Assembly (NCBI RefSeq): GCF_054482525.1
Contig: NZ_CM137006.1
Reading direction: 5' to 3' (one strand)
DNA length: 64,000 bases
The notes below the pieces were generated by a model, which had not been told where the DNA came from, did no database searches, and saw only the letters and a program-made list of their open reading frames with translations. Each line of letters opens with the position of its first letter. Position 1 is the first letter of the stretch. Both the position numbers and the translations under genes were made by a program. Below, piece by piece: positions 7,385 to 25,478 of this stretch.

Positions 7385-7981
7385 TCAAACCTCTTCTCTT
7401 TTTAATTTTTCGTTTATGAGATTATTTCTTTCCCATAATCCGGCAAAACGAGCAGCATTACTGGCGGTATAACGCACAGTATGGCGAATATTTCGATGCC
7501 CGAGATAATCCTGAATTAAACGGGTATCGGCACCACGCTCCGCCAGTTCATAACCACAAGCATGCCTTAACATATGAGGATGAGTCTGCGTTACGGTTCC
7601 AGCTTCAATACCGGCATCGCGAATAATGCGATAGGCCTGCTGGCGAGAAAGCCGACTCCCGCGGCGAGAAATAAATATAGCGTCGGTCCGGTCAGCGCCT
7701 TTCCAGTTAGCACGTTCCTGGGTCCAGCGTTCCACGGCTTCACGCTCATCAAAACGTAACGGGTGAACGGTAGAAAATCCGTTCTTCAGTCGGCGAATAT
7801 TTATTCGACCTTCATTAAGGTCAAGGTCCTGATAATGCAGATCAAGCAGTTCACTAATACGCATCCCATGCCGATATGCCAACAGAATAAGACAATAATC
7901 TCTGGCTCCCGTTGCCCCGTAACAAACCGCCTGCATCATGGCCTGAACTTCTTTACCGGTAAGATAACGACGTTTACTCAC
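7385..7981 (-). CDS. fimE: Tyrosine recombinase FimE (ON-to-OFF switching)
   Basis: 198-aa ORF; integrase-family C-terminal motifs (HxxR...Y); position next to fimS. Confidence 0.95.
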   Translation of the reverse strand: MSKRRYLTGKEVQAMMQAVCYGATGARDYCLILLAYRHGMRISELLDLHYQDLDLNEGRINIRRLKNGFSTVHPLRFDEREAVERWTQERANWKGADRTDAIFISRRGSRLSRQQAYRIIRDAGIEAGTVTQTHPHMLRHACGYELAERGADTRLIQDYLGHRNIRHTVRYTASNAARFAGLWERNNLINEKLKREEV

Positions 7982-8459: not shown

Positions 8460-9062
8460 CTATAAAACAGCGTGACGCTGTCTCCCTCTAGCTCTATCCC
8501 AGATGCCGTAAAAACGCCCTGCATTGCTGGCGGTATACCAGACTGTATGACGAATATTGCGATGCCCAAGATAATCCTGGATAAGTCGCGTATCTATTCC
8601 CATATTCGCCAAAGCAAAACCACACGAATGGCGTAACATGTGCGGATGAATCTCCAGTGATAACCCAGCATTACCACCAGAAGTCGAGATAATATGGTAA
8701 AACTGTTGCCGAGAAAGCGGATTCCCCTTACGTGATAAAAATACCCACTCGCTCTCAGCATGCGGATACGAAGTACGGATACTCAACCAGTTTTTTAAAG
8801 CCTGAACTTCTTTGTTCAATAGCGGGTGCGTTGTTGAAAAGCCTTTTTTTAATCGATGGATATATATACACTTTGCCTTAAGATCAATATCCGAAATCCT
8901 CAATCGACAAATTTCACTCGCCCGGAAACCATGAATAAAACAAAGCAAAGTCAGACAATAATTACGTGCTGCATGAGGCCCGGTATTTGCTGCTTTAAGG
9001 AGTGACTCGATTTCACTATGGGTCAGGAAGTTCCTTTTTTTGTTATCAGCCTTATTCTTCAT
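8460..9062 (-). CDS. fimB: Tyrosine recombinase FimB
   Basis: ORF 8460..9092 trimmed to MKNKADNKKRNFLTHSE; paralogue of FimE. Confidence 0.93.
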   Translation of the reverse strand: MKNKADNKKRNFLTHSEIESLLKAANTGPHAARNYCLTLLCFIHGFRASEICRLRISDIDLKAKCIYIHRLKKGFSTTHPLLNKEVQALKNWLSIRTSYPHAESEWVFLSRKGNPLSRQQFYHIISTSGGNAGLSLEIHPHMLRHSCGFALANMGIDTRLIQDYLGHRNIRHTVWYTASNAGRFYGIWDRARGRQRHAVL

Positions 9063-10077
9063 CGTTTTTCCCTTATAATTACAGACGCGCACTAGCTGTG
9101 CTGGGTTAGCAATAATCCAACATTTTAATCCTGATTATGTTTATAAAAGCGAACGTTTGCTTAATAACTAACGTAAGTGGACCAGTTCTTCAGAGTGAAC
9201 TTAAATGGAGTGGCAACAGTTACTTATAATAACGTTGCCATACAAACGCTATGCTCCTGCATGCTATGTACCTTTATATATTTATCAATCTGATACGAAT
9301 CTAATAATAACCCTCATCATTAATGCAACTAATCTTATCTATATATCATGTGATATGTTCTGTAACAAGTAAAATCAACATAAAAAATTCAGCAAAATTT
9401 AATATTCGTTCAACTAGCCGTCTCACATATGACATTATTAGTCAACTCCATTTGCCACAAAATGGCTATTTCATGGAACGCAGTAATTTCTTAGTGGCTA
9501 TTATCATGCTAATGCTTAGGTCCCTAGCGATTATTCCTGGCTGGTTCGTCAGTTTAGGCCATGAGATTGTTACATTCCTTTTTATCATGGAGATATGGGG
9601 GAAAGCAGGAGACGATTTTTTCATCTACATTCGTTGATAAATATGGCTTTGGTCACTAAGACTTAAACCCTCCTCAATCACAGCTGTTCGCCGGGCAATA
9701 CGGCAAACAAACTAAGTGAAACATCATCCTGAAAACACCAACATCAACAAGCCTCTCCAGATCGACTTCAGGAGTGACCAGTTACAAGCCACAAATCAGG
9801 AAACATATTTCATGGTGAGAATTATGATCAGTCTGATGGCGGGTAAACCCTTATTTTCACCCCGCTCACTGAGTTAGCTTGCAAATCTTCCCTTGTTTAG
9901 ACTCTAGATAAATCTCATATAAAACAGGCAATTAAACAAAAACCTTTGGTTTGTGACGGCCTCCACAAATGTTCGTTTAGCTTCACATGGCATCTTCTTC
10001 TTAGAAAAAGATCGACATATTTTGTGACACGAATTGCAAATCTGGTTTTGTTGTATGGATTGCGTGATTTTTGATCT

Positions 10078-10097
10078 GGTATAACAGGTATAAAGGT
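10078..10097. promoter_or_regulatory. Putative NanR operator (GGTATA repeats: GGTATAACAGGTATAAAGGT) beside a GATC site, in the fimB-nanC intergenic region
   Basis: GGTATA-type repeat motif read from the sequence about 420 bp upstream of nanC; NanR consensus recalled from the literature. Confidence 0.55.
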
Positions 10098-10515
10098 GCA
10101 CCACGATAGTCAATGAGACAGGGCATCTCGCAATCTATGGCAAACATCACTTCAGTTCTTTCTCATCGGGTGATGAAAACGCACTTCAGTCTGAAAGGAA
10201 TATGAAAATGAGATCAACAGACACTCTATTTTATGACTCTGGGTAAAATGGATTGAGTAAGTGATATAGCTTACGAACATTCAAATCAATTAAACATCAG
10301 AAGAGATTTTATACTCAGGTATTTAATCTGGCTCTCTGTTTATTTAAATAATGTGGAAGAGAATTTTCACAGGAGACCTTATACAAAAAATATAAAATAC
10401 AGTTACCCGTTGCCAAAGACACTATAAGCCTGGCAAAAAATATTACACAACATAAATGCTAATTGTTTATGCGGGCTTTGTATTGCTTTCTGTATCCTAC
10501 AAATGAGTGAAATTT

Positions 10516-11232
10516 ATGAAAAAGGCAAAAATACTTTCTGGCGTATTATTACTGTGCTTTTCGTCACCATTAATTTCTCAGGCTGCGACACTGGACGTAC
10601 GTGGTGGATATCGTAGCGGAAGCCATGCCTATGAGACTCGACTCAAAGTCAGTGAGGGATGGCAAAATGGATGGTGGGCAAGCATGGAAAGTAATACCTG
10701 GAATACCATTCATGATAATAAAAAGGAAAATGCCGCACTCAATGATGTTCAGGTTGAAGTTAATTACGCGATTAAACTTGATGATCAATGGACGGTGCGC
10801 CCGGGAATGTTAACGCATTTTAGCAGCAACGGCACACGCTACGGACCCTACGTAAAACTGTCCTGGGACGCGACAAAAGATCTTAATTTTGGCATTCGCT
10901 ATCGTTACGACTGGAAAGCTTACCGACAACAAGACTTATCCGGTGATATGTCTCGTGATAACGTTCATCGTTGGGATGGATATGTCACTTACCATATTAA
11001 TAGTGATTTCACCTTCGCATGGCAAACGACGCTATACAGCAAACAGAACGATTATCGCTATGCAAACCACAAGAAATGGGCGACGGAAAATGCATTTGTT
11101 CTACAATACCATATGACGCCCGATATTACGCCATACATAGAATATGACTACCTTGACCGTCAGGGTGTTTACAACGGCAGAGATAATTTATCGGAAAACA
11201 GTTATCGCATTGGTGTGTCATTTAAACTGTAG
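10516..11232 (+). CDS. nanC: N-acetylneuraminic acid outer membrane channel NanC
   Basis: ORF 10507..11232; signal peptide; KdgM-family porin size; synteny. Confidence 0.85.
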   Translation: MKKAKILSGVLLLCFSSPLISQAATLDVRGGYRSGSHAYETRLKVSEGWQNGWWASMESNTWNTIHDNKKENAALNDVQVEVNYAIKLDDQWTVRPGMLTHFSSNGTRYGPYVKLSWDATKDLNFGIRYRYDWKAYRQQDLSGDMSRDNVHRWDGYVTYHINSDFTFAWQTTLYSKQNDYRYANHKKWATENAFVLQYHMTPDITPYIEYDYLDRQGVYNGRDNLSENSYRIGVSFKL

Positions 11233-13409: not shown

Positions 13410-14154
13410 TACACGCTATTCCTTGTGCAATCAGGCCAGCTCGCAATAAAGGCAGCAACTATGCTTGAAGCCCCTTTCACCGCCGGATAAATAATATCCT
13501 TACGGCAATTGGTAACCGTATAAAATGCTTGATGTTTTGAACTGCCGTTGACGAAGATGAAGTAATCTGCTTTTTTGGCAGCATCCAATAACGCATCAAT
13601 GGCAACGCGATCATTGTTGAGCTCAATTCATAGCGCCGGATACAATTTCAATAAGGCGTCTTTACCACGTTGCGTGGCATTTTTGTAATACTGTAAAACA
13701 CCCGCTTTTTCCCGCGGAGATTCCGATACAACGGAGACGTTACGCTTGCTGGTATGGTTTCTGTCGGGAGGGTACTACCGATATCCTTACAAACGTAGAG
13801 CTGTTCCATCATGCGTGCCAACAACAGCATACGGATATCCAACCGTTCCCAGCGACGTAGGAACATCTCGCGAATGTTAATCCAGTACTGTAGTCGGCGA
13901 TCGCTATCACCAGATTCACAATCATAAAGAACCTCTGCAATATCAAGAGTATACTTGAGAATTTATGTCGATTCATTTTTCGTGCACAACATTTCGATAG
14001 CTTCGAGGGCATCATGGTATTCTTTGTGACTGAAGGTCCATGAAAGTAACGTATCCAGAATAATCCCTGTAGTTGCCAAAATGAGTTGATCACTACACAA
14101 TGATTTGTTTGTACAGAAGGAACGATTATTATATGTTCTTGTAGGGCAGAGCAC
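13397..14154 (-). pseudogene. Degraded gene remnant: four short minus-strand ORFs in different frames at the left island border
   Basis: Four abutting 60-95 aa ORFs with no intact long frame; could be a yjhR-like remnant but its identity is not determinable by eye. Confidence 0.35.
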
Positions 14155-14271
14155 GTTGCTACGGTAACAGCGTTGAAGATAATTTGGTCGAGACTGTAGT
14201 GGCCCAGTTTAAAAGGTAGCAGAATTTTAAAAGTGTCAGGTGCATAGAATTAAAAAAATGGAACTATAAAA

Positions 14272-16005
14272 ATGGAAATCATGTTACCAAAAAACACCTT
14301 ATATGACAGAGAGCAAAATGTCTTTTTTGAAAAGGTTACGGCCTTAATTGGCGAAAATGGTGCTGGTAAGTCCTCGATTTTACAATCCGTATTTATTAAC
14401 TGTTTAACAAAAAAATATCTACCAGAAACAAAGGTTGTTTGTTTTTCTTCTGGACAAAATGAGAAATACTCAACGTACTTCTCTGATTATCTTTCTCATG
14501 AAAGGCAAGCAAATAGAGGTCTTAACTTAGATTGTTGTTATTACGATAAATCATGGTCAAAGTTACTAATATTCATATCCACAATTTGTAAATCAAATGG
14601 TCTTGTTAGAAATTTTTTATGTGAGAAAGGCTATATTGATGTATCAGATGATAAAAATGATGATATATCAAGCAAGCTTACATTGACGGTCCGAGTAAAT
14701 TCGGCTTACGTTAATCGAGTAAAAATGGCATTAGCACAAGAAGAACAAGGTATTGAAAATACTTTAAGGTATTCAGCTTATCATAGGACTTTAGAAAGTT
14801 TCATTAATAATATTGTTAATGCTGATTATGATTTCGAGTCTCCACTTGAAGCTCAAGAGATCTTGCTAACTCATTCAAATTTTTTCAATCCATCATTTGA
14901 GGAAGCAGAAGATTCCTTTTTTGATCCTATCATAACATTTTTCACTCAAGCAGCAGATAATGATTACTTTATAATAAAACCATCATTACAGCTAGAGTTT
15001 AAAAATAATATCGAACTGAATGATATTAGTGATGGGGAATATCAAGTACTCTTTTTATACTCTCTGCTTGATATTTTTGATAGTCCTAATACTTTATTCT
15101 TATTAGATGAGATAGATTCCCATTTACATTACAAGAATATTGAGCTCTTATGGCATCGACTACATAGTATTAATGGTTATGCGATAACAACCACCCATCT
15201 ATTAGACTCAATTACAGCTACTGATAATGATTTTAAAAACTTAAAGATTGTTGATAAAGGAAAAATAAAAGAAGATGATAAAATAAAAACTATAATAGAA
15301 CGTTTATCTGTCTTGACAAGAATATCAGACGTACAGTTCGAAGTGTGTCGTAAACTAGAAAACATAGTATTGATGGATGATTATAATGATTGGACTATTT
15401 TTTATGCCTTAGCAAAGAAAAAAGGACTTGATGTATCAAAGTTAGATGGCCTCCATGCAATAAAACAGTCCTCTGGTTACGATAATTTAAATCAAGAGTT
15501 CGCAAAACCAAAAATAGAGTGGATTAATTCGCTTTCAAATGTAAATACTGATAAGAAAGTCAAAAAAATATTCATGATCTGCGACAAAGATGAGGCTCCA
15601 ATTACCTATCAGAAAGATGGAGTTCAAGTCAATGGAAGTGAATATTCAAAACATATAGCGAAGTTAGAAAATAAAAACAAAAATAAAATATATCTCCTTG
15701 CTTGGAAAAGAAGAGAAATAAAAAACTACTTATTATCTTATACGGCATTGTCTCATCATGGATTTATCGGGCAAATAAACAATGGTGATCTGCCGGCTAA
15801 CAGTTATTTAAAAGAAAACAATCCTGGAGATAATTCAGCAATTAGCCGGCTTAATGTAAAACATTGCATCACAAAAATAATTGATTCTGATGGTATAGGA
15901 TTAGATATCTCAAAACTTTACTCATATATAGAACTTATACCACCTGCTGAGATCAGTGAAGATATAGTGAACATGTACAATTTTTTGGTGGAGAAATTAA
16001 AATGA
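14272..16005 (+). CDS. OLD-family-like ABC ATPase (577 aa) with a possible C-terminal TOPRIM/DUF4435-like region; candidate restriction component
   Basis: Walker A GENGAGKSS, ABC signature-like ISDGEYQ, Walker B LFLLDEID, H-loop TTTHLL, C-terminal DxD-like ICDKDE; about 30% GC; stop overlaps the next start (ATGA). Confidence 0.7.
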   Translation: MEIMLPKNTLYDREQNVFFEKVTALIGENGAGKSSILQSVFINCLTKKYLPETKVVCFSSGQNEKYSTYFSDYLSHERQANRGLNLDCCYYDKSWSKLLIFISTICKSNGLVRNFLCEKGYIDVSDDKNDDISSKLTLTVRVNSAYVNRVKMALAQEEQGIENTLRYSAYHRTLESFINNIVNADYDFESPLEAQEILLTHSNFFNPSFEEAEDSFFDPIITFFTQAADNDYFIIKPSLQLEFKNNIELNDISDGEYQVLFLYSLLDIFDSPNTLFLLDEIDSHLHYKNIELLWHRLHSINGYAITTTHLLDSITATDNDFKNLKIVDKGKIKEDDKIKTIIERLSVLTRISDVQFEVCRKLENIVLMDDYNDWTIFYALAKKKGLDVSKLDGLHAIKQSSGYDNLNQEFAKPKIEWINSLSNVNTDKKVKKIFMICDKDEAPITYQKDGVQVNGSEYSKHIAKLENKNKNKIYLLAWKRREIKNYLLSYTALSHHGFIGQINNGDLPANSYLKENNPGDNSAISRLNVKHCITKIIDSDGIGLDISKLYSYIELIPPAEISEDIVNMYNFLVEKLK

Positions 16006-17909
16006 ACACCTCTTTATTTGAAGATCTACTTACACTAATCAAGAAAAAGAGTTCGATAAGAAATACAGAGCAAGCAGTAGAGTTAATTTCATTATTTATT
16101 TTTTTACATTATATAAAATTATATCTTTATGAAAATGATAAAAGATTTTCAGATATAAAAAACATATCAAGCAACAACATTAATGAAATTAAATATTATT
16201 ACCAGCAACTATATGAAAGTTTTATTTTCTCGATAGATATAAAAAATATAAACCACGACATGCTTGAAAACCTCAGGAGTAAGATAGGTTTTTTAATTAA
16301 TAACATCAATGACCATGAAATAATTAAATATATAGATTATTCTATTTCGCAGATACATTCACTTACAGAATTCCATCAATATGCAAATTCTTATCAATCT
16401 TTAATTCTTAGGATGGTTAATGAATCGGGTCGTTCAGGTGAATATGTTACTCCATCTGCTTTAGTTCAGCTCATGGTTGAAATGTTATCACCTACAGATG
16501 GCACATCAATCTACGACCCAGCATGTGGAACTGGGGGTTTATTAATAGAGTCAGCACGATATATTAAAGGCAACAGTTTAAACAAAAACTTAAATTTAAA
16601 TTATTCCCTTATTGGTAATGACACATCATCATTTGCCTGTCTAATCTCAATTGTTAACCTTTTAATCAATAAAGAATTTAATTTTGAAATAATACTAAAA
16701 GATAGCTTAGATATAAATTATAAGAATAAAAAATATGACTTTGTTTTAACTAACCCACCATTTGGGAAAAAGAGCTGTTGGGATAATATTCATATTGACA
16801 CACATTATAAAGGACCTAATCTAGACTATTACTTCCTGGAGCATGTTATTGACTCTCTCGCTGTTAATGGCAAAGCAGCCATGATATTACCAGAGCGTTT
16901 TTTATATGATGTGAGTGAAGAGTGCATCACTCTTAAAGATAAGATCTTCCAAAATTATAATTTAGATTGTATTTTATCTATACCGTCAGGTGCATTGCTT
17001 CCTTACACTGCAGTAAAATTATGTATTCTTTTTATAAGTAATTCTGGCCCAACAGATAGAATATTTTTCTACAATTTAAATAATGGTGAAAAATACTCAC
17101 GTACAAATATTATAAAATTCGATGATTTTATAGATTTTTTAGAGTCAGCAAAAAATAGAACAATAACTGAACACTCCTGGATTATCAATATTAGTGATAC
17201 ACCTTCATCTTATAACTTACTCTTAAAAGATAAAGAGCGAAACTCATATGAGTTTCTTAGTGATTCTATAGTTAACATTGAACAGACAATACGTAATAAT
17301 GAATTATTACTAACAGAGTTGTCTTTATTAAGAGAAAAAATAGCAATCTTAGAGTCAACAATAAAAAATCATTCGCATGAATATGAATTTGAGAGACTTA
17401 AAGTTGGAAATATTGCAATAGTAAAATCCGGAAATTTATTACAAAAAAACAGGCTGTTACCCACTGGACCAATTCCTGTATACGGTGGAAATGGAGTTAT
17501 TGGATATAATAATGAAGCAATGGAAAATGGTGAAAATATTATTATTGGTAAGGTCGGAGCTCTTTGCGGAAACGTTCGGTATGTTCAAGGTGATATTTGG
17601 GTGACAAATAACTCATTAATTATTAAGAATTATTCACCAAATAAAGTTTTAACACCCTACCTTGCAAAATTATTATCTACTTTAAACTTAAGAAGGCTCG
17701 CCGTTGGTACCGCTCAGCAATATTTAACCACGACACAAATAAAAAATGTAGAAGTTAGTATTCCACCTTTAACGACCCAGTATAAATTAAATATTTGGCT
17801 TGATGAGTTAGATAATACGCTTGAACAATATAATAATCTCATTGAAAAAATAATGAATGATAAGCGAGAACTTAAAGAGAATTTGTATAAAGGTCTTTTA
17901 ATAGAATAG
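16002..17909 (+). CDS. Gamma-class N6-adenine DNA methyltransferase fused to an HsdS-like target-recognition domain (635 aa)
   Basis: Motif I DPACGTGGLL followed by motif IV NPPFG; C-terminal region resembles type I specificity-subunit TRDs; AT-rich; coupled to the upstream ATPase. Confidence 0.75.
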   Translation: MNTSLFEDLLTLIKKKSSIRNTEQAVELISLFIFLHYIKLYLYENDKRFSDIKNISSNNINEIKYYYQQLYESFIFSIDIKNINHDMLENLRSKIGFLINNINDHEIIKYIDYSISQIHSLTEFHQYANSYQSLILRMVNESGRSGEYVTPSALVQLMVEMLSPTDGTSIYDPACGTGGLLIESARYIKGNSLNKNLNLNYSLIGNDTSSFACLISIVNLLINKEFNFEIILKDSLDINYKNKKYDFVLTNPPFGKKSCWDNIHIDTHYKGPNLDYYFLEHVIDSLAVNGKAAMILPERFLYDVSEECITLKDKIFQNYNLDCILSIPSGALLPYTAVKLCILFISNSGPTDRIFFYNLNNGEKYSRTNIIKFDDFIDFLESAKNRTITEHSWIINISDTPSSYNLLLKDKERNSYEFLSDSIVNIEQTIRNNELLLTELSLLREKIAILESTIKNHSHEYEFERLKVGNIAIVKSGNLLQKNRLLPTGPIPVYGGNGVIGYNNEAMENGENIIIGKVGALCGNVRYVQGDIWVTNNSLIIKNYSPNKVLTPYLAKLLSTLNLRRLAVGTAQQYLTTTQIKNVEVSIPPLTTQYKLNIWLDELDNTLEQYNNLIEKIMNDKRELKENLYKGLLIE

Positions 17910-17989
17910 ATCACAGTAGCAGGGTGTCCACAATACACCCTGCTACTGGTTGCAAGTAAGTTGCAATATCTGTACTGCTGAAGCTACGA

Positions 17990-20900
17990 TTAATAATGCT
18001 CCTCAATATACCCATACGCCTTCTGGAACAACTCTTTATCTTTCCCTAGTCCAAACTGGGCCAAGGTCAGCAAAAGCGCCTTTTGGATTTCGCGCGGGCC
18101 ACTGTTAGAATTTTGCCAGCCATCAAAGCGGGTAGCTTTCACAATTTTATCAATTTGCTCTACAACATCACCGATTAACTTAGGGGTAGTTTCCGGACGT
18201 GTTTCGAGGAAAAGCTTAGTCAACGCCTGTTTATTATCAGCTTCAGTTACTGGACGCTCGCCCGTTTCGCGCTCGGCTTGAACGGTATCTTTCGCTGCAT
18301 CCAACAGGCCTTTCAACCAGTCAATGGCCTTGATAACACCAGCTTCATAGTCCTGACGCAGTTTTTCAAGGCGCTCGCCCAATGCCACAAATTTAGGATC
18401 ATGACTGCCGCGCAAACGTCCCATAAGATCAATCTCCAGGCGTTTAGCACGTTGTTCCTGCTCTTTAGCGGTCAGGGTAAAAATAGCGTGCTCGTCCATG
18501 ACCAACTCGTCAATATCATCGCGAATACGATTGATATCAGTATGCTCATGGATCATCTTGATTGTTTCGGGGCCAAGGGCAGCCCAAACAAGCGCACCTG
18601 TCTGCCCTACCGGACGCACCGATTCATAAATTTGCGCCAGCCATTTATAGTCCTGACGATAAGGGGTCAAAAAAGGGTCTGGGTTGATAGCTGACCATAA
18701 CTTGGATAACACACCAAAGCTGGCAGCGAATTCATCGCGCTTCTCGTTGGTCGGCAGGCATTCCTGCGCGGCCATAATACCTTCAAAACCAGCTATGGAC
18801 CGATCCACACCAGGGAAGAAGGACAAACATTTATTCAGTTGTAACGGCAATAGCTCTTTAAATGCCTCAATTCCCTCTACAACTCCTTCAATTTCTTCAG
18901 GGTTATAGGCCAGAGCGGTACGCAGATTTTCGAAAACGCCGAGGTAGTCGATAATTAATCCCATGTCCTTGCGTACAGTATCGGTTTCGTACAGCCGGTT
19001 AGTTCGGCACATGGCCTGCAGAAGGGTATGATCGCGTAGAGGCTTATCGAGGTACATGCAGTAGCAAATCGGGGCATCAAAGCCCGTAAGCAGCTTGGCG
19101 GTTACGATAATAAGCTGTAATGGATATTCAGGATCTTTAAAGCACTCAATTAGATCCTTTTGCACCTGCTCTTCGGCATCGATGTGCTGCCAGCGTTCAA
19201 AATCGACTTGTTTGACAGGCAGCTCCAACTCATCATGCCATTTAAGCCAATCCTTGTTGAGCTTGTCTTTTTTGCCACCCTCTTCAACTTTAATCGGAGC
19301 CTGGTCAACGTTCATAACCACTTCAACTGCATCAAAACCAAGCTTTTCACCGAGCAAATAATACATCTGCACACAGGCTTCGCGATCGTATACCACAACC
19401 ATGCCTTTCATCTTTTTCGGCATAACATGGTTGGTAAAATGCTCAGCAATATCATTACTCACCGCAGCCATACGTCTGGGAGATTTCAGCATAATAGCCA
19501 GCTTGCCGGCACGTCTGGACAATGCTGCTTTTTCTTCTTCATCCAGGTTGTTTTCGGTAGCCAGTTGCTCGAACTCTTCATTGATGGCATCACGATCCAC
19601 TCGGAGTTCAGCCAGCCGAGGTTCGAACTTCACCGGGTTAGTTGCGCCATCCCGGATCGACTGCTTATAGCTATAGCGGCTCATATAGCGACCTGGATCT
19701 TCTTCGGCACCGAACAATTTGAACGTATTACGATCAATGCCAGAAATCGGAGTACCAGTCAGGCCATAGAAGTGGGCATTGGGCAACGCCCAGCGCATTT
19801 TCTCGCCTAATCCCCCTTCCTGTGTACGGTGAGCTTCGTCAACCAACACAATGATATTGTCCCGGTTGTTCAGGCCATTAGGGTTGCTATCGTCAATTTC
19901 GATATCTTTAAATTTAAAGATGGTGGTGATTAAAATGCCACGGCTGTCTTGTTCAATGTATTCACCCAACTTTTTGCAGCTTTGCACTTTAATCAGATTC
20001 TTAACGTCGGCTCCACCAAAGGTCTCGTTAATTTGGCTGTCCAGATCTCGCCGGTCCACAACGATAAGTACCGTCGGGTTTTTTAACGCATTATCGGCAC
20101 GTAGCATTTTGGCGGCGTAAAGCATCAACAAGGATTTACCCGATCCCTGGAAATGCCAAATAAGACCTTTTTTTGGATAGCCTCTGCGAACACGCTCAAC
20201 AATTTGTTTTGCAGCTTCAAATTGCGGATAACGCGGCAAGATTTTAACGCGTTTAGGTGGAGTATTTTTGCCCGTTTTGACGGTTGAAAATAATGCAAAA
20301 GATTCCAGTAACTGCAATAAGGTTTGCGGATTTAACAAACTCTCACAGCTATTGAGTACCGATGCCAGACCCGGCAAAATTTCATCACGAAGCTCAGTAT
20401 TATGCCAGGGTCCCCAGTCTTTAACTCGGGCATTAATGGCTCCATAGGCAAAGGTTTTACCTTCGCTGGCAAAGCACAGCAAGTTAGGTACAAAGAAAGA
20501 TTCAACATTTTTCCAGTAGTACTTTTTGCCACCCATGAAATCGGCAGCACCGTCTTGCCAGGTCACGCTGGGGCGTGTTGCGGTTTTAACTTCGCCTACT
20601 ACCAGTGGCATGCCGTTCACATAAAGAACAATATCAAAATAGACTTCAGTGGCCGCGATATAGTGAACCTGCTGCGCCACTACAAAGTGGTTGTTCTCTA
20701 TATTGTCAAAATCAATCAGATTGATGGTGATATGGTCGCCATTCTTACCAAAAGGCAAGGTTTTGTCGGCCATCAACCATTCCTGGAAGTTTTCATTGGC
20801 CTTTACCAAGCCGGTATGGCGGGCTTCTAAAACCACTCCTCGCAGTTTGTAAATGACCTCATCGGCATAGTCAGGCTGTCTGCCGATATCAGGGTTTAAC

Positions 20901-21070
20901 GAACAAAGCGCGTCTTTTAGCCACTCATCAACGAATATATCCTGCGCTTGTTTAGGCAGGTTTTCACCGTGGCAGTAAGTCCACTTGACTCCGCTTAAAC
21001 CTTTTAAACGGTCGATAATTCCATTTTCTGTGACGGTTTGTTCGTTAAACATTTTATATTTCCTTATCAA
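17990..21070 (-). CDS. hsdR: Type I restriction enzyme R subunit HsdR (alternative start at 21052)
   Basis: 1026 aa; Walker A GSGKS and DEAH box (VDEAHRTQ); recognisable HsdR N-terminal nuclease region; operon with hsdM/hsdS. Confidence 0.9.
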   Translation of the reverse strand: MIRKYKMFNEQTVTENGIIDRLKGLSGVKWTYCHGENLPKQAQDIFVDEWLKDALCSLNPDIGRQPDYADEVIYKLRGVVLEARHTGLVKANENFQEWLMADKTLPFGKNGDHITINLIDFDNIENNHFVVAQQVHYIAATEVYFDIVLYVNGMPLVVGEVKTATRPSVTWQDGAADFMGGKKYYWKNVESFFVPNLLCFASEGKTFAYGAINARVKDWGPWHNTELRDEILPGLASVLNSCESLLNPQTLLQLLESFALFSTVKTGKNTPPKRVKILPRYPQFEAAKQIVERVRRGYPKKGLIWHFQGSGKSLLMLYAAKMLRADNALKNPTVLIVVDRRDLDSQINETFGGADVKNLIKVQSCKKLGEYIEQDSRGILITTIFKFKDIEIDDSNPNGLNNRDNIIVLVDEAHRTQEGGLGEKMRWALPNAHFYGLTGTPISGIDRNTFKLFGAEEDPGRYMSRYSYKQSIRDGATNPVKFEPRLAELRVDRDAINEEFEQLATENNLDEEEKAALSRRAGKLAIMLKSPRRMAAVSNDIAEHFTNHVMPKKMKGMVVVYDREACVQMYYLLGEKLGFDAVEVVMNVDQAPIKVEEGGKKDKLNKDWLKWHDELELPVKQVDFERWQHIDAEEQVQKDLIECFKDPEYPLQLIIVTAKLLTGFDAPICYCMYLDKPLRDHTLLQAMCRTNRLYETDTVRKDMGLIIDYLGVFENLRTALAYNPEEIEGVVEGIEAFKELLPLQLNKCLSFFPGVDRSIAGFEGIMAAQECLPTNEKRDEFAASFGVLSKLWSAINPDPFLTPYRQDYKWLAQIYESVRPVGQTGALVWAALGPETIKMIHEHTDINRIRDDIDELVMDEHAIFTLTAKEQEQRAKRLEIDLMGRLRGSHDPKFVALGERLEKLRQDYEAGVIKAIDWLKGLLDAAKDTVQAERETGERPVTEADNKQALTKLFLETRPETTPKLIGDVVEQIDKIVKATRFDGWQNSNSGPREIQKALLLTLAQFGLGKDKELFQKAYGYIEEHY

Positions 21071-22241
21071 TCATAGCTTGGCGCAGTTGAATAATTTTCC
21101 CCAAGGATTCATTGTGCCTATAAATATTCTCATACGAACACTTAAACGTATTAATGATTGATGCTTGAATATCGAAGGGAGGAATAGGAATTTGAATTTT
21201 TAAAAAGTTATCTTTATTTATTTTCTTCATACTTCCGCTAGTTCCAGCAGCAATACCTTGAATAGCTCGACGGCCATATGGAGACATCAGATAGTACATT
21301 AAAAACTCTTTTTTAATAAATTTTTCGTCAACAGCCAATCTCCACATCGTGTCTGGGAAAATCGTATTCCCATTGCCAGTCGATCCTTTATATTTTCCAA
21401 CTAAACCAACCAACTCCGCTGTATTAGAACGAGAGATTAACAAATCACCATCATTGCATGTTTTTCCTTTTAAAAAATGATCTTCTGTAATATTTTTTAA
21501 AGTAGTTTCTCTGAATCCTGATTTCGACAAACTATTTAGGTTCAGGACATAGTACCCAGTCCCGACTGCGGTTTCAACAGGAGAATATCCCCCTTCTGGA
21601 GAATCAATTAAAACATCTTTAATAGAACCAAAAGTCCATCCAACCGGAAGAGGAACACATTTATTCTCCCTCGAATCAAAGTAGTTATCAAAAGTCCGTA
21701 GACCAATAGCATATAATAATCTTTTAGCTGCTTTGAGAGCACTTAAATATAGAAGTTCTTTCTTTGCTAACGAATCAAAGATTATTAATGACGAGTATTG
21801 CTGTTCAATGCTCGGTATATTAACTTCTAGTTTATTTAAATCACTCCATTTTATTCGCGATGATAGCGAGCCGGCGGAATTTGCAATCACCTTTTCCATA
21901 AAAGAGGTTGATTGCATCAAGTGGGGTAAGTACCCATCCAATAAGTAGTTGTTTTTCCTTGGTTTAATTACCATTGCATCAGCAGAGCAAATACCATTAA
22001 TAGGGCTCACCGACACCCTTTTTAAATATGTATTTCGTCTACTAAAAATTATTTCGCCACACTTTACCTTAAAGGCTTGTGTTTTCAATTCAACGTCAGC
22101 CCCCCAATCATGAACATAAAAATAACCAGATTTCAAATGTTCCAACCCAATAAAATGCTTAGCATCGTCGCTTGTTGGGGAGATTCTAACCATAACCTGT
22201 TCAGCAAGATCACCAAATGTAACATTTCTTTTATTATTCAT
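21054..22241 (-). CDS. hsdS: Type I restriction-modification specificity subunit HsdS (start uncertain; ORF extends to 22292)
   Basis: About 400 aa, consistent with a two-TRD specificity subunit; lies between hsdM and hsdR with overlapping ends. Confidence 0.8.
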   Translation of the reverse strand: MNNKRNVTFGDLAEQVMVRISPTSDDAKHFIGLEHLKSGYFYVHDWGADVELKTQAFKVKCGEIIFSRRNTYLKRVSVSPINGICSADAMVIKPRKNNYLLDGYLPHLMQSTSFMEKVIANSAGSLSSRIKWSDLNKLEVNIPSIEQQYSSLIIFDSLAKKELLYLSALKAAKRLLYAIGLRTFDNYFDSRENKCVPLPVGWTFGSIKDVLIDSPEGGYSPVETAVGTGYYVLNLNSLSKSGFRETTLKNITEDHFLKGKTCNDGDLLISRSNTAELVGLVGKYKGSTGNGNTIFPDTMWRLAVDEKFIKKEFLMYYLMSPYGRRAIQGIAAGTSGSMKKINKDNFLKIQIPIPPFDIQASIINTFKCSYENIYRHNESLGKIIQLRQAMIDKEI

Positions 22242-23739
22242 TATTATATTTCTCTCTATCAATTTCATAGCCAATGCTATCCAAGCTATCAAACAATACC
22301 TTGATATTTCTTTTGAGTTTTACGCTACTGACTTTCCATGATTCGATAGCATGCTGAATATCATTCATTTTGACATTGTTTTGAGATTTCACATAAAGTG
22401 AAATCGATAAATTATAGAAATTTTCTTTAATAGCTTCGATATCCACTAAAGCGGTTATGTCGTTTTTTTTCTCCGGATTAAAATAAGCCTCGCATAATAC
22501 TTCCAAATCATCATCAGATAGGCGACTATGGGCACGTTCACGGGTAACATACTCAACCCCGTTGATAAACAAAACCTTATTTTTGCGTTCAGCAGGTTTA
22601 TTGCAATTAAGCACCACCAAGCAAGATTCCATCGGCGAGTTGTAAAACAGATTTGGTCCCAAACCAATCACCGCTTCGATTATGTCGGATTCAATCACCT
22701 GTTTACGAATGGCTTGTTCAGAATCACGGAACAGTACACCATGCGGCCAGAGCATGGCAGCACGACCGGTGTCGGGTTTTAAACTTTTGATTATATGGGT
22801 ATAAAACGCATAATCAGCACAACCTTGTGGAGGCACGCCATAGAGATTACGCCCATAGGGATCGGCTGCAAACTTGTCACGATTCCATTTCTTAATGGAG
22901 TATGGTGGGTTAGCAAAAATCACATCAAACTGCTTGAGCCGATCGTTTTCAATAAACTTTGGCTCAGCCAAAGTATCACCACGCAGCACATCAAACTCTT
23001 CAATATCATGCAGGAACATATTCATACGAGCAATAGCGGAAGTCAGCAGGTTCACTTCCTGACCATAAAGGTGCACAGAGCGCCACTCTTCTCCTCTTGC
23101 ACGAAGATCCATCACTGCATTTAGCAACATCCCTCCAGTGCCACACGTTGGATCATAGGCTGTTTCACCCGGTTTTAAGCCCATAATGCGCGTCATTAAA
23201 TGCACGACTGTTCGGTTGGTGTAGAACTCTGCTGCCGTATGACCGGAATCATCAGCGAACTTTTTAATCAGGTATTCGTAGGCCTCACCAAGATCATCCT
23301 GAGCGACAGATTTAATACCGAGCGGTATTTTACTGAAATGTTCAATCAGATCAGCCAGCAGATGATCGGGCAGGCGCTCTTTATTGGTCCACTGCGCATC
23401 ACCGAAGACGCCATGTAAACGCGGATTATTGGCTTCAATTAGTCGAAGCGCATTCTGGATCGCTTCACCAATGTTTTTACTGGTATTGCGTACCTTTTCC
23501 CAACTGGCTTCAGAGGGAATATTGAAACGGTGAAACATCGGCATGGCGGCATATTCAGCATCACCTTCATGGAGTTCCAGCGCTTCGTTATATTCTTCCA
23601 GATAGACATCTGACAGGCGTTTGTAAAACAGCAACGGGAAGATATACTGCTTGTAGTCTGATGCGTCAATTTGGCCACGAAGAAATTCGGCGGCTCCCCA
23701 GAGCAGCTCTTCCAGCTTTTTATTACTCATAGTACTCAT
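22234..23739 (-). CDS. hsdM: Type I R-M methyltransferase subunit HsdM (copy 1, 501 aa)
   Basis: Motifs DPTCGTGGML and ANPPYS; HsdM-like N-terminal domain. Confidence 0.9.
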   Translation of the reverse strand: MSTMSNKKLEELLWGAAEFLRGQIDASDYKQYIFPLLFYKRLSDVYLEEYNEALELHEGDAEYAAMPMFHRFNIPSEASWEKVRNTSKNIGEAIQNALRLIEANNPRLHGVFGDAQWTNKERLPDHLLADLIEHFSKIPLGIKSVAQDDLGEAYEYLIKKFADDSGHTAAEFYTNRTVVHLMTRIMGLKPGETAYDPTCGTGGMLLNAVMDLRARGEEWRSVHLYGQEVNLLTSAIARMNMFLHDIEEFDVLRGDTLAEPKFIENDRLKQFDVIFANPPYSIKKWNRDKFAADPYGRNLYGVPPQGCADYAFYTHIIKSLKPDTGRAAMLWPHGVLFRDSEQAIRKQVIESDIIEAVIGLGPNLFYNSPMESCLVVLNCNKPAERKNKVLFINGVEYVTRERAHSRLSDDDLEVLCEAYFNPEKKNDITALVDIEAIKENFYNLSISLYVKSQNNVKMNDIQHAIESWKVSSVKLKRNIKVLFDSLDSIGYEIDREKYNNE

Positions 23740-25235
23740 ACCTCGAACCCTTCTTTGATAAGCAGGGCCTCCAGCTCCTCTTCTGCTTTTTCCAGCTCAG
23801 CCAGCTTCCGTTGAAAATCTTTGAGCGCCTCTTCCACAGTGATGGTTTCTTCTTCGAGTGGCTTTTGCACATAACGAGCAATATTTAGATTGAAGTCATT
23901 TTCTTCAATCTCCTTCAGAGGAACCCAGCGTGCAACGCCTTCGATTTCTTTTGCATCTGGCCCTTGTTGCGCCTGGTCATGATAGATTTGGTATATTTCA
24001 TCGGCCTGCTTGTTGGACAGCGTATTCTGCGCACGTCCCTTGGTATAGATTTCTTCAGCATTGATGATCAATACATGATCTTTATGCGCGGCCGGACGTG
24101 ATTTACGCAGCACCAAAATACACGCAGGAATCCCAGTTCCATAGAACAGGTTGGAAGCAACACCAATAATCGCCACAATGCGATTCTCTTGCAGTAATTT
24201 GGTTCGAATTGCCCCCTCTGCGCCGCCACGAAACAGCACACCATGAGGTAATACGACTGCCATACGTCCATTGTCGTTAAGTGAAGCAAACATATGCTGC
24301 ACCCAGGCAAAATCACCATTTGTTTTAGGCGCCAGGCCATATTGCTTACGGCCATAGGGATCGTTCGACCACAGATCGTATCCCCATTCTTTTAAGCTAA
24401 ACGGTGGGTTGGCAACAACGCAGTCAAAGGTTTCTAAACGATCGCTTTTTAAAAATTTAGGTTCGCGTAAAGTATCCCCTCGGACAATATCGAAATCTTC
24501 CTGTCCATGCAGGAACAGATTCATACGCGCAATAGCTTCCGTCGTTAAGTTCTTTTCCTGACCCTTGATTTTTAGTAAACGCGGATCACCACCATTTTCT
24601 TTTACATGGTGGATGGTCTCAAGCAGCATACCACCGGTACCACAGGCGGGATCGTAGACACTCTCACCGGCTTTTGGATCAAGAATGTTAACCATCAAAC
24701 GAACGATAGTTCGTGGGGTATAGAACTCACCTGCTTTCTTATTGGCTTTGTCTGCAAAGCGTTTGATCAGATACTCGTATGCGCGCCCCATATCATCGTC
24801 ACGGACACTAGAAACGCCAAGGTTCACCTTATTGAAGTGATTGAGTAACGTAGCCAGTAACTCATCAGAAAGGCGTTCTTTATTGGTCCAGCTGGCATCG
24901 CCAAAAATGCCATGCAGTTTAGGGTTTGCCAGTTCTATACCACGGAAGGACTCTTTTAAAGCCTGACCGATGTCCTTGGTCTCAGCGAAAACATCGCGCC
25001 AGTGGCAATTTTCAGGTATCTGAATACGGTGAAACATCTTGCCCTTGGCAAGCTCTGCATCCCCAACGCTCTCCATCGCATCAGCAAATTCTTCGTCATA
25101 CACGTCACAAATGCGCTTGAAGAACAAGATGGGGAAAATGTACGTTTTGTAATCTGACGCATCAATGGGCCCTGTAATAATATGGGCTGCATGCCATAGA
25201 TGGGCCTCGAGATCTTTTAGGTTAATCAGTGTCAT
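23736..25235 (-). CDS. Second, divergent HsdM-like N6-adenine methyltransferase (copy 2; extended ORF reaches 25337)
   Basis: Motifs DPACGTGGML and ANPPFS; about half of residues identical to copy 1 by eye; ATGA overlap with copy 1. Confidence 0.85.
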   Translation of the reverse strand: MTLINLKDLEAHLWHAAHIITGPIDASDYKTYIFPILFFKRICDVYDEEFADAMESVGDAELAKGKMFHRIQIPENCHWRDVFAETKDIGQALKESFRGIELANPKLHGIFGDASWTNKERLSDELLATLLNHFNKVNLGVSSVRDDDMGRAYEYLIKRFADKANKKAGEFYTPRTIVRLMVNILDPKAGESVYDPACGTGGMLLETIHHVKENGGDPRLLKIKGQEKNLTTEAIARMNLFLHGQEDFDIVRGDTLREPKFLKSDRLETFDCVVANPPFSLKEWGYDLWSNDPYGRKQYGLAPKTNGDFAWVQHMFASLNDNGRMAVVLPHGVLFRGGAEGAIRTKLLQENRIVAIIGVASNLFYGTGIPACILVLRKSRPAAHKDHVLIINAEEIYTKGRAQNTLSNKQADEIYQIYHDQAQQGPDAKEIEGVARWVPLKEIEENDFNLNIARYVQKPLEEETITVEEALKDFQRKLAELEKAEEELEALLIKEGFEV

Positions 25236-25478
25236 TGTTGTCTCTTTTCGATCCTGCAGTGCTTGAACTCTCAGCAACTCATGGATTTCACAGTAAAAAA
25301 GCAAGCAAAGCGATTCCACAACCACCTGAGCGTTCAATACGTATGACGCCTTTACCCAAGTTGCTTAAATCAAGGAAATTGCCAGAGATAATACTCTGGC
25401 ATCAGAATGATACCAAGTTGAAGGGCTGATTTCCGCATCAATACCTTGTGGTAATAGGGGATTACTCTTTTACCCTTA

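Follow-up and report, generated by a model that had tools for sequence, protein, structure and literature searches.

The fimB-nanC intergenic region of an Escherichia coli strain and its very probable NanR operator

Gene organization of the fimB-nanC locus

The DNA analyzed here is a stretch of 64,000 nucleotides from contig NZ_CM137006.1 (RefSeq assembly GCF_054482525.1), referred to below as the window. According to the gene calls, the fim/nan locus in the window lies in reversed orientation compared to K-12. It is composed of the following features:

fimA, then fimE (fimE at 7385-7981), minus strand: gene calls
8460-9062, minus strand: fimB coding sequence, type 1 fimbrial switch recombinase; the ATG is the complement of 9060-9062
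9063-10515, no strand assigned: divergent fimB-nanC intergenic region, 1453 bp
10516-11232, plus strand: nanC coding sequence, N-acetylneuraminate outer-membrane channel, first gene of nanCMS; ATG at 10516
After nanC, plus strand: nanM and nanS, gene calls

The starts of fimB and nanC agree with the RefSeq annotation of K-12 MG1655 and of strain SCU-102. FimB shows no amino-acid difference from K-12 FimB, and the NanC protein is identical to K-12 NanC. An AT-rich spacer of about 1.45 kb between the divergent fimB and nanC genes had been described in the initial annotation, and this description was confirmed: the spacer measures 1453 bp (1455 bp in K-12) and has a G+C content of 36.5%, compared to 46.3% for the whole window. 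The spacer as a whole is 95.3% identical to that of K-12 in a pairwise alignment and 100% identical in strain SCU-102, and 5020 of the 5426 complete E. coli genomes contain at least 80% of it. An Rfam scan of 8900-10700 at E <= 1 returned no known RNA family. One open reading frame of 104 amino acids (9323-9637) was considered and rejected as a gene; K-12 carries a 1-bp deletion within it, and nearly all genomes have no RefSeq annotation at this place.

Beyond nanS follows an island at 13410-25400, to which an AAA ATPase, an N6-methylase and a type I restriction-modification (R-M) system belong; in K-12 the same place is taken by ythB, yjhR and topAI-yjhQ. It had been claimed that the operator arrangement between fimB and nanC is conserved next to a different downstream island, and the comparison with the annotations of K-12 and SCU-102 bears this out. 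The operator circuit is independent of the accessory island next to nanS. Strain SCU-102 is a close relative of the window strain, with only 2 mismatches to the window up to about 21 kb, followed by divergence in the type I R-M specificity (hsdS-like) gene.

The NanR operator upstream of nanC

The central element of the spacer is a group of GGTATA repeats with an adjoining GATC site:

10071-10097, plus strand: 27-bp block TTGATCTGGTATAACAGGTATAAAGGT, common to the K-12 nanA, nanX and nanC promoters; includes the GATC at 10073-10076
10078-10100, plus strand: NanR operator O_NR, GGTATA-ACA-GGTATA-AA-GGTGCA; assigned by K-12 identity, position and literature
10078-10083, 10087-10092 and 10095-10100, plus strand: O_NR repeats GGTATA, GGTATA and GGTGCA, from the sequence

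Two perfect repeats are thus followed by a third, degenerate one, which reads GGTGCA and not GGTATA. The distance from the operator to the nanC ATG is 416 nt, and two -10-like hexamers, TATAAC (10080-10085) and TATAAA (10089-10094), are embedded in the operator repeats. The nanCMS operon is known to carry a GGTATA-repeat NanR operator (Horne 2021, PMC8012715; Vimr 2013, PMC3658417), and the nanC/fimB spacer yielded a peak in genomic SELEX with NanR (Shimada 2018, PMC5934670). Two correctly spaced repeats suffice for high-affinity binding of NanR, with a Kd of about 25 nM versus 20-39 nM for three (Horne 2021, PMC8012715). The nanR gene itself lies outside the window; more than 99% of the E. 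coli isolates surveyed reportedly carry the nanRATEK genes (PMC10088187).

K-12 was searched for GGTATA-N3-GGTATA at the three loci assigned to NanR by the literature. All three NanR-controlled promoters, those of nanA, nanX (yjhB) and nanC, have the block TTGATCTGGTATAACAGGTATAAAGGT in identical form, and the spacing of the GGTATA repeats in the window is the same as at K-12 nanA and nanX. O_NR corresponds to the K-12 nanC copy base for base, the GGTGCA included. The identification of the motif as the NanR operator, proposed earlier from the letters alone, holds up in the alignment with the K-12 region, in which the motif aligns perfectly within a stretch (9999-10103) that is identical in both strains. 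The coordinates given at that time for the GGTATA-repeat element (10078-10097) and for the neighboring GATC (10073-10076) are all correct, with one refinement: position 10097 is the end of the 27-bp block, and the element goes on to 10100 through GGTGCA. The region is very probably the E. coli nanCMS-fimB regulatory spacer, and the motif its NanR operator O_NR, acting as published. A NanR operator between fimB and nanC is already known biology, which is conserved in this strain.

O_NR has both common and distinct features when compared to the operators of nanATEK-yhcH and nanXY (yjhBC), which are of the type (GGTATA)3. The 27-bp core and the GATC are identical, whereas the third repeat is GGTATA at those operators and GGTGCA at O_NR. 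The distance to the start codon is 416 nt at O_NR in contrast to 36 nt at the nanA operator. Unlike the nanATEK-yhcH and nanXY operators, O_NR is described in the literature as also activating a second gene, which is divergent and about 750 bp distant. The base-level footprint limits of O_NR, O_NC1, O_NC2 and the IHF site that are used throughout are presumed ones, based on secondary sources.

As a separate observation, the K-12 nanX and nanC promoters have about 60 bp in common, namely the 27-bp block and about 33 bases upstream of it with 4 mismatches (L004:4580-4650 compared to window 10045-10100), so that the two promoter-operator modules look like paralogous copies of one promoter cassette.

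The fimB promoter and its distal operators

On the fimB side, the spacer could be anchored to published coordinates. The SlyA operator O_SA1 (TTAGCATGATAA) is located at -179 to -168 from the fimB start (McVicker 2011, PMC3173223). Its complement is found at window 9501-9512, which would set the fimB +1 at 9333 and leads to the following assignments:

9063-9333, minus strand: putative fimB 5' UTR, 271 nt, from the O_SA1 anchor
9368-9363 and 9345-9340, minus strand: fimB promoter-like elements TTGTTA and TATATA, separated by 17 nt and followed after 6 nt by A 9333
9501-9512 and 9516-9527, minus strand: SlyA operators O_SA1 and O_SA2, exact matches to the McVicker 2011 sequences
9498-9507 and 9527-9536, minus strand: H-NS2 and H-NS3, exact matches to McVicker 2011, overlapping O_SA1/O_SA2
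9805-9827, no strand assigned: candidate NagC operator O_NC2, ATATTTCATGGTGAGAATTATGA, at -472 to -494; dyad and position
10010-10013, no strand assigned: GATC beside candidate O_NC1, kept in 10 of 11 strains aligned
10017-10039, no strand assigned: candidate NagC operator O_NC1, ATATTTTGTGACACGAATTGCAA, at -684 to -706; identical to K-12

The TTGTTA-17-TATATA arrangement is probably the fimB promoter. It sits exactly at the +1 derived from O_SA1 and thereby provides an independent check on the mapping. The adjoining sequence 9334-9400 has 0 differences from K-12 in 67 positions and zero diversity in 10 strains.

The operators through which NanR and NagC activate fimB are situated at distances of about 760 to 470 bp from the fimB promoter, on its upstream side (McVicker 2011, PMC3173223). 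When the window is mapped on the O_SA1 scale, O_NR falls at -745 to -767, compared to a published 'around 760', and the -472 to -494 of O_NC2 compares to a published 'around 470'. The suggestion that the region matches the published distal control of fimB by NanR and NagC is thus supported by position.

The two candidate NagC sites follow the pattern ATATTT-N8-GAATT, with dyads starting at 9805 and 10017, hence 212 bp apart, in the window as well as in K-12. This pattern was derived from O_NC1 and O_NC2 themselves, so that a chance statistic for it would be circular; its use is limited to showing that K-12 has the same pair with the same spacing. O_NC2 reportedly lies 212 bp closer to fimB than O_NC1. 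Exactly midway between the NagC-like dyads is an IHF-like core, AAACAGGCAATTA (9922-9934), which belongs to the most variable part of the spacer and agrees by eye with the consensus WATCAANNNNTTR at 7 of 9 specified positions, compared to 8 of 9 in K-12. Judged from this match, 9922-9934 may be a binding site for IHF.

Some differences between strains were noticed at and near these sites. The central base of O_NC2, position 9815, is a lineage-specific G in the window and an A in 9 other strains. A GATC beside O_NC2 (9826-9829) is absent in most strains and, among those sampled, is shared by strain 317 only. In turn, the hypervariable patch described below includes a GATC in K-12 that is absent in the window.

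Conserved and hypervariable parts of the spacer

Eleven strains from different allele classes were aligned for an analysis of conservation. Pairwise diversity, which has a mean of 0.04 over the spacer, is about 0 at the fimB promoter (9303-9402), 0.005-0.015 from O_NC1 through the GATC to O_NR (10011-10090) and 0 at 10448-10507. The NanR operator region is a diversity trough among 10 strains of different lineages. On a larger scale, among about 5,100 E. coli genomes, 3490 have the 101-bp operator block (10005-10105) at an identity of 99% or more, and only 30 have it at less than 95%.

The opposite behavior is displayed by one short segment of the spacer:

9905-9980, no strand assigned: hypervariable patch around the IHF-like core, in which 22 of 76 positions (29%) differ from K-12

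The third-codon positions of fimE, fimB, nanC and nanM are 2-6% different from K-12. Of about 4,900 genomes, only 15 carry the patch allele of the window with an identity of at least 99%, among them O166:H15 strains, PCN033 and IMT16316; another 1,403 genomes are 80-90% identical to it and 3,480 are 60-80% identical. The patch exists in several very divergent alleles across E. coli. A literature search retrieved no description of a hotspot at 9905-9980 specifically. Host-source biomarkers that make use of the variable nanCMS-fimB spacer have been described before (PMC11267920).

The comparison with the K-12 nanC(yjhA)-fimB region, on which the Blomfield and Plumbridge laboratories have worked, reflects this partition. 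Both strains have the same genes in the same mutual orientation, the same SlyA and H-NS sequences, the same fimB promoter and the same spacing between the NagC-like dyads, and the segment from O_NC1 through the GATC to O_NR (10010-10100) is 100% identical, with 0 differences in 91 positions. The differences include the divergence of the 76-bp patch, the G in place of the K-12 A in the center of O_NC2 and the extra GATC of the window at 9826.

These data also bear on the question of whether the GGTATA motif could be a chance occurrence in AT-rich DNA. Single GGTATA hexamers are indeed common, with 28 in the window compared to 20.5 expected. However, the 20-nt composite GATCNGGTATAN3GGTATA occurs once in the 64 kb, where the chance expectation is 0.04 even with 2 mismatches allowed. 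Moreover, the motif is base-identical to three K-12 operators and nearly invariant in about 5,000 genomes, yet it adjoins a patch that varies by 29%. Composite uniqueness, K-12 identity and conservation together refute a chance origin, which is extremely improbable, and the motif is treated in the following as the NanR operator.

The divergence of the patch may simply reflect relaxed constraint on a spacer that needs only to bend. The nanCMS-fimB locus lies within a recombination-prone part of the chromosome. An unlikely but conceivable alternative is that the patch is kept as a set of very old divergent alleles, which tune the coupling of type 1 fimbriation to GlcNAc and sialic acid from lineage to lineage. 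If this were true, the rare patch allele, the G at 9815 and the GATC at 9826 would together give the clade a distinct regulatory setting.

O_NR might serve in this strain only as the repressor site of nanCMS, and the long-range control of fimB might be weakened or rewired in the lineage because the IHF-like spacer and the center of O_NC2 have diverged. This we consider very unlikely. The 22 differences in the patch, the fall of the IHF-like core from 8/9 to 7/9 consensus matches together with an altered AT-rich flank, a base at 9815 that is unique among 10 strains and a patch allele restricted to 15 genomes would all fit such a loss. On the other hand, O_NR and O_NC1 are intact, as are the two half-sites of O_NC2 and the 212-bp spacing, and the length of the spacer is unchanged, therefore its helical phasing is preserved. 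Position 9815 lies in the center of the dyad, where there is no symmetry, and the patch differs in all E. coli lineages, the published work being on K-12 only. In addition, IHF reportedly aids NagC and is not required for activation by NanR, which counts against rewiring. The preferred reading thus remains an operator that acts on both nanCMS and fimB as in K-12.

The Dam site at the operator

The GATC at 10073-10076 is separated from the first GGTATA repeat by 1 nt and is kept in all 11 E. coli strains aligned. In K-12, NanR binds within 5 bp of GATC sites at nanA, nanC and yjhB, and methylation at these sites varies and changes with the growth phase (Westphal 2016, PMC5155068). At 80 loci from many Enterobacterales genera, the 20-mer operator core was found in exact form; the nanC-type copy of the operator is present only in E. 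coli-derived contigs among these loci. As the GATC stands at the same offset in 42 of the 80, the Dam site is a frequent but not obligatory part of the operator module.

The absence of the site from the other 38 identical-core operators, which belong to other genera and have GGTCT, GTTCT, CTGTCT and similar sequences instead, leaves room for a more modest role. The GATC could be a passive passenger of the operator module, which may be occluded by NanR and has no regulatory role of its own, and it agrees with this that a block of NanR binding by methylation 'has not been confirmed experimentally' (Westphal 2016, PMC5155068). Against it, the GATC is kept at all three K-12 operators as well as in the E. 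coli alignment. With two free positions, 'GA' should be present at roughly 6% of the loci, which the observed 42 of 80 exceeds by far; the loci are, however, not independent of each other phylogenetically. Moreover, a dam mutant in late stationary phase shows 3- to 5-fold reduced expression of nanC and nanR (Westphal 2016, PMC5155068). A passenger role is a serious possibility, which we hold to be somewhat less likely than not.

The arrangement resembles that of Lrp at pap, of OxyR at agn43 and of the NagC-protected GATC of the same region, in that a GATC edges the site of a regulator. At Dam sites of the pap and agn43 type methylation varies with occupancy, and methylation of the nan GATC sites of K-12 is variable, too (Westphal 2016, PMC5155068). 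By its position, the GATC of O_NR is a candidate for such a site; it is not known to have a heritable ON/OFF methylation pattern, which is a difference.

The nanC leader and Spot 42

Downstream of the operator, two features concern the nanC transcript:

10101-10515, plus strand: probable nanC 5' leader, about 415 nt, deduced from the operator position
10482-10501, plus strand: pairing site for the sRNA Spot 42 (spf), just upstream of the nanC ribosome-binding site; predicted duplex

From the position of the operator, transcription of nanC probably starts near O_NR and gives rise to a long 5' leader. This is in line with nanC being a validated target of Spot 42 with a long 5' UTR (PMC3495738). 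A scan with consensus promoters and terminators found no nanC promoter at O_NR and no terminators; the same scan yielded 4 promoter-like matches compared to 5.9 expected and missed the fimB promoter as well, and is thus uninformative.

Pairing with Spot 42 was evaluated for the seed region in place of full-length duplex folding. For nucleotides 1-18, in the 5' single-stranded region of Spot 42, a duplex of -23.1 kcal/mol with 10482-10501 is predicted. No other site in the 1.5 kb is better than -13.4, and 1 of 100 shuffled seeds attains -23.1 kcal/mol. An unconstrained folding of full-length Spot 42 with the leader was discarded; it produced huge interior loops, and 32% of the shuffles reached the observed energy. 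The translation-initiation region of nanC (10448-10507), in which the site is located, is invariant in 10 strains. With regard to the known repression of nanC mRNA by Spot 42, the same pairing site is present here next to the ribosome-binding site and nothing differs.

Proposed regulatory circuit

Binding of the regulators, their response to effectors, activation of fimB and protection from methylation are taken from the K-12 literature. By analogy, and because the sites agree in sequence with those of K-12, lie at the corresponding positions and are strongly conserved, the strain is expected to behave like K-12. Without sialic acid, NanR dimers would bind cooperatively to the GGTATA repeats, of which two are perfect and one is degenerate. 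Bound NanR would repress nanCMS because the operator overlaps the -10-like hexamers of a far-upstream nanC promoter, which would then be covered. The same NanR complex would raise transcription of fimB from a distance of about 750 bp. NagC would act alongside NanR, looped between O_NC1 and O_NC2 with an IHF-bent spacer in between. Sialic acid (Neu5Ac) would release NanR and GlcNAc-6-P would release NagC, upon which nanCMS would be induced and fimB expression would fall; fewer cells would therefore switch their type 1 fimbriae from OFF to ON. The GATC next to the first repeat would be occluded by bound NanR, so that its methylation state would report, and may reinforce, the occupancy of the operator.

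Type 1 fimbriae are a major colonisation and virulence factor, and the nanC-fimB region is a textbook example of how bacterial genes can be activated over very long distances. Through this region, host sialic acid and GlcNAc, which are released in inflammation, would be tied to the decision for or against type 1 fimbriae. The intact operator described here shows only that the strain has the standard circuit. The combination of an invariant NanR/NagC block with a hypervariable spacer offers a natural allele series for the role of the presumably IHF-bent spacer in the distal activation of fimB.

Natural variants of the region

A few genomes deviate from the common arrangement. Strain 317 has GGTACA in place of GGTATA in the second NanR repeat, at the equivalent of position 10091, a natural operator variant that might weaken binding of NanR. 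In E. coli E69 (CP089930.1, positions 510-560 of locus L093) the nanC-type upstream sequence and the operator core are intact and are followed by unrelated sequence after ...AAAGGT, which points to the third repeat as the place of an insertion or rearrangement. Insertion sequences mark the spacers of HCP4S3_I4, RIVM_C037134 and 702/18, listed in that order as IS3, an IS1-associated deletion and an IS5-family element. The IS3 is inserted within the hypervariable patch (around window position 9924). With the IS1-associated deletion the fim genes are lost up to about 9326 (the fimB start), and the NanR/NagC block and nanC are kept. Finally, two contigs labelled as a Bacteroides MAG (L018) and as Methylobacterium mesophilicum (L084) contain exact E. 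coli nanC-type and nanX-type operator regions; contamination of the two assemblies with E. coli DNA is the most likely explanation.
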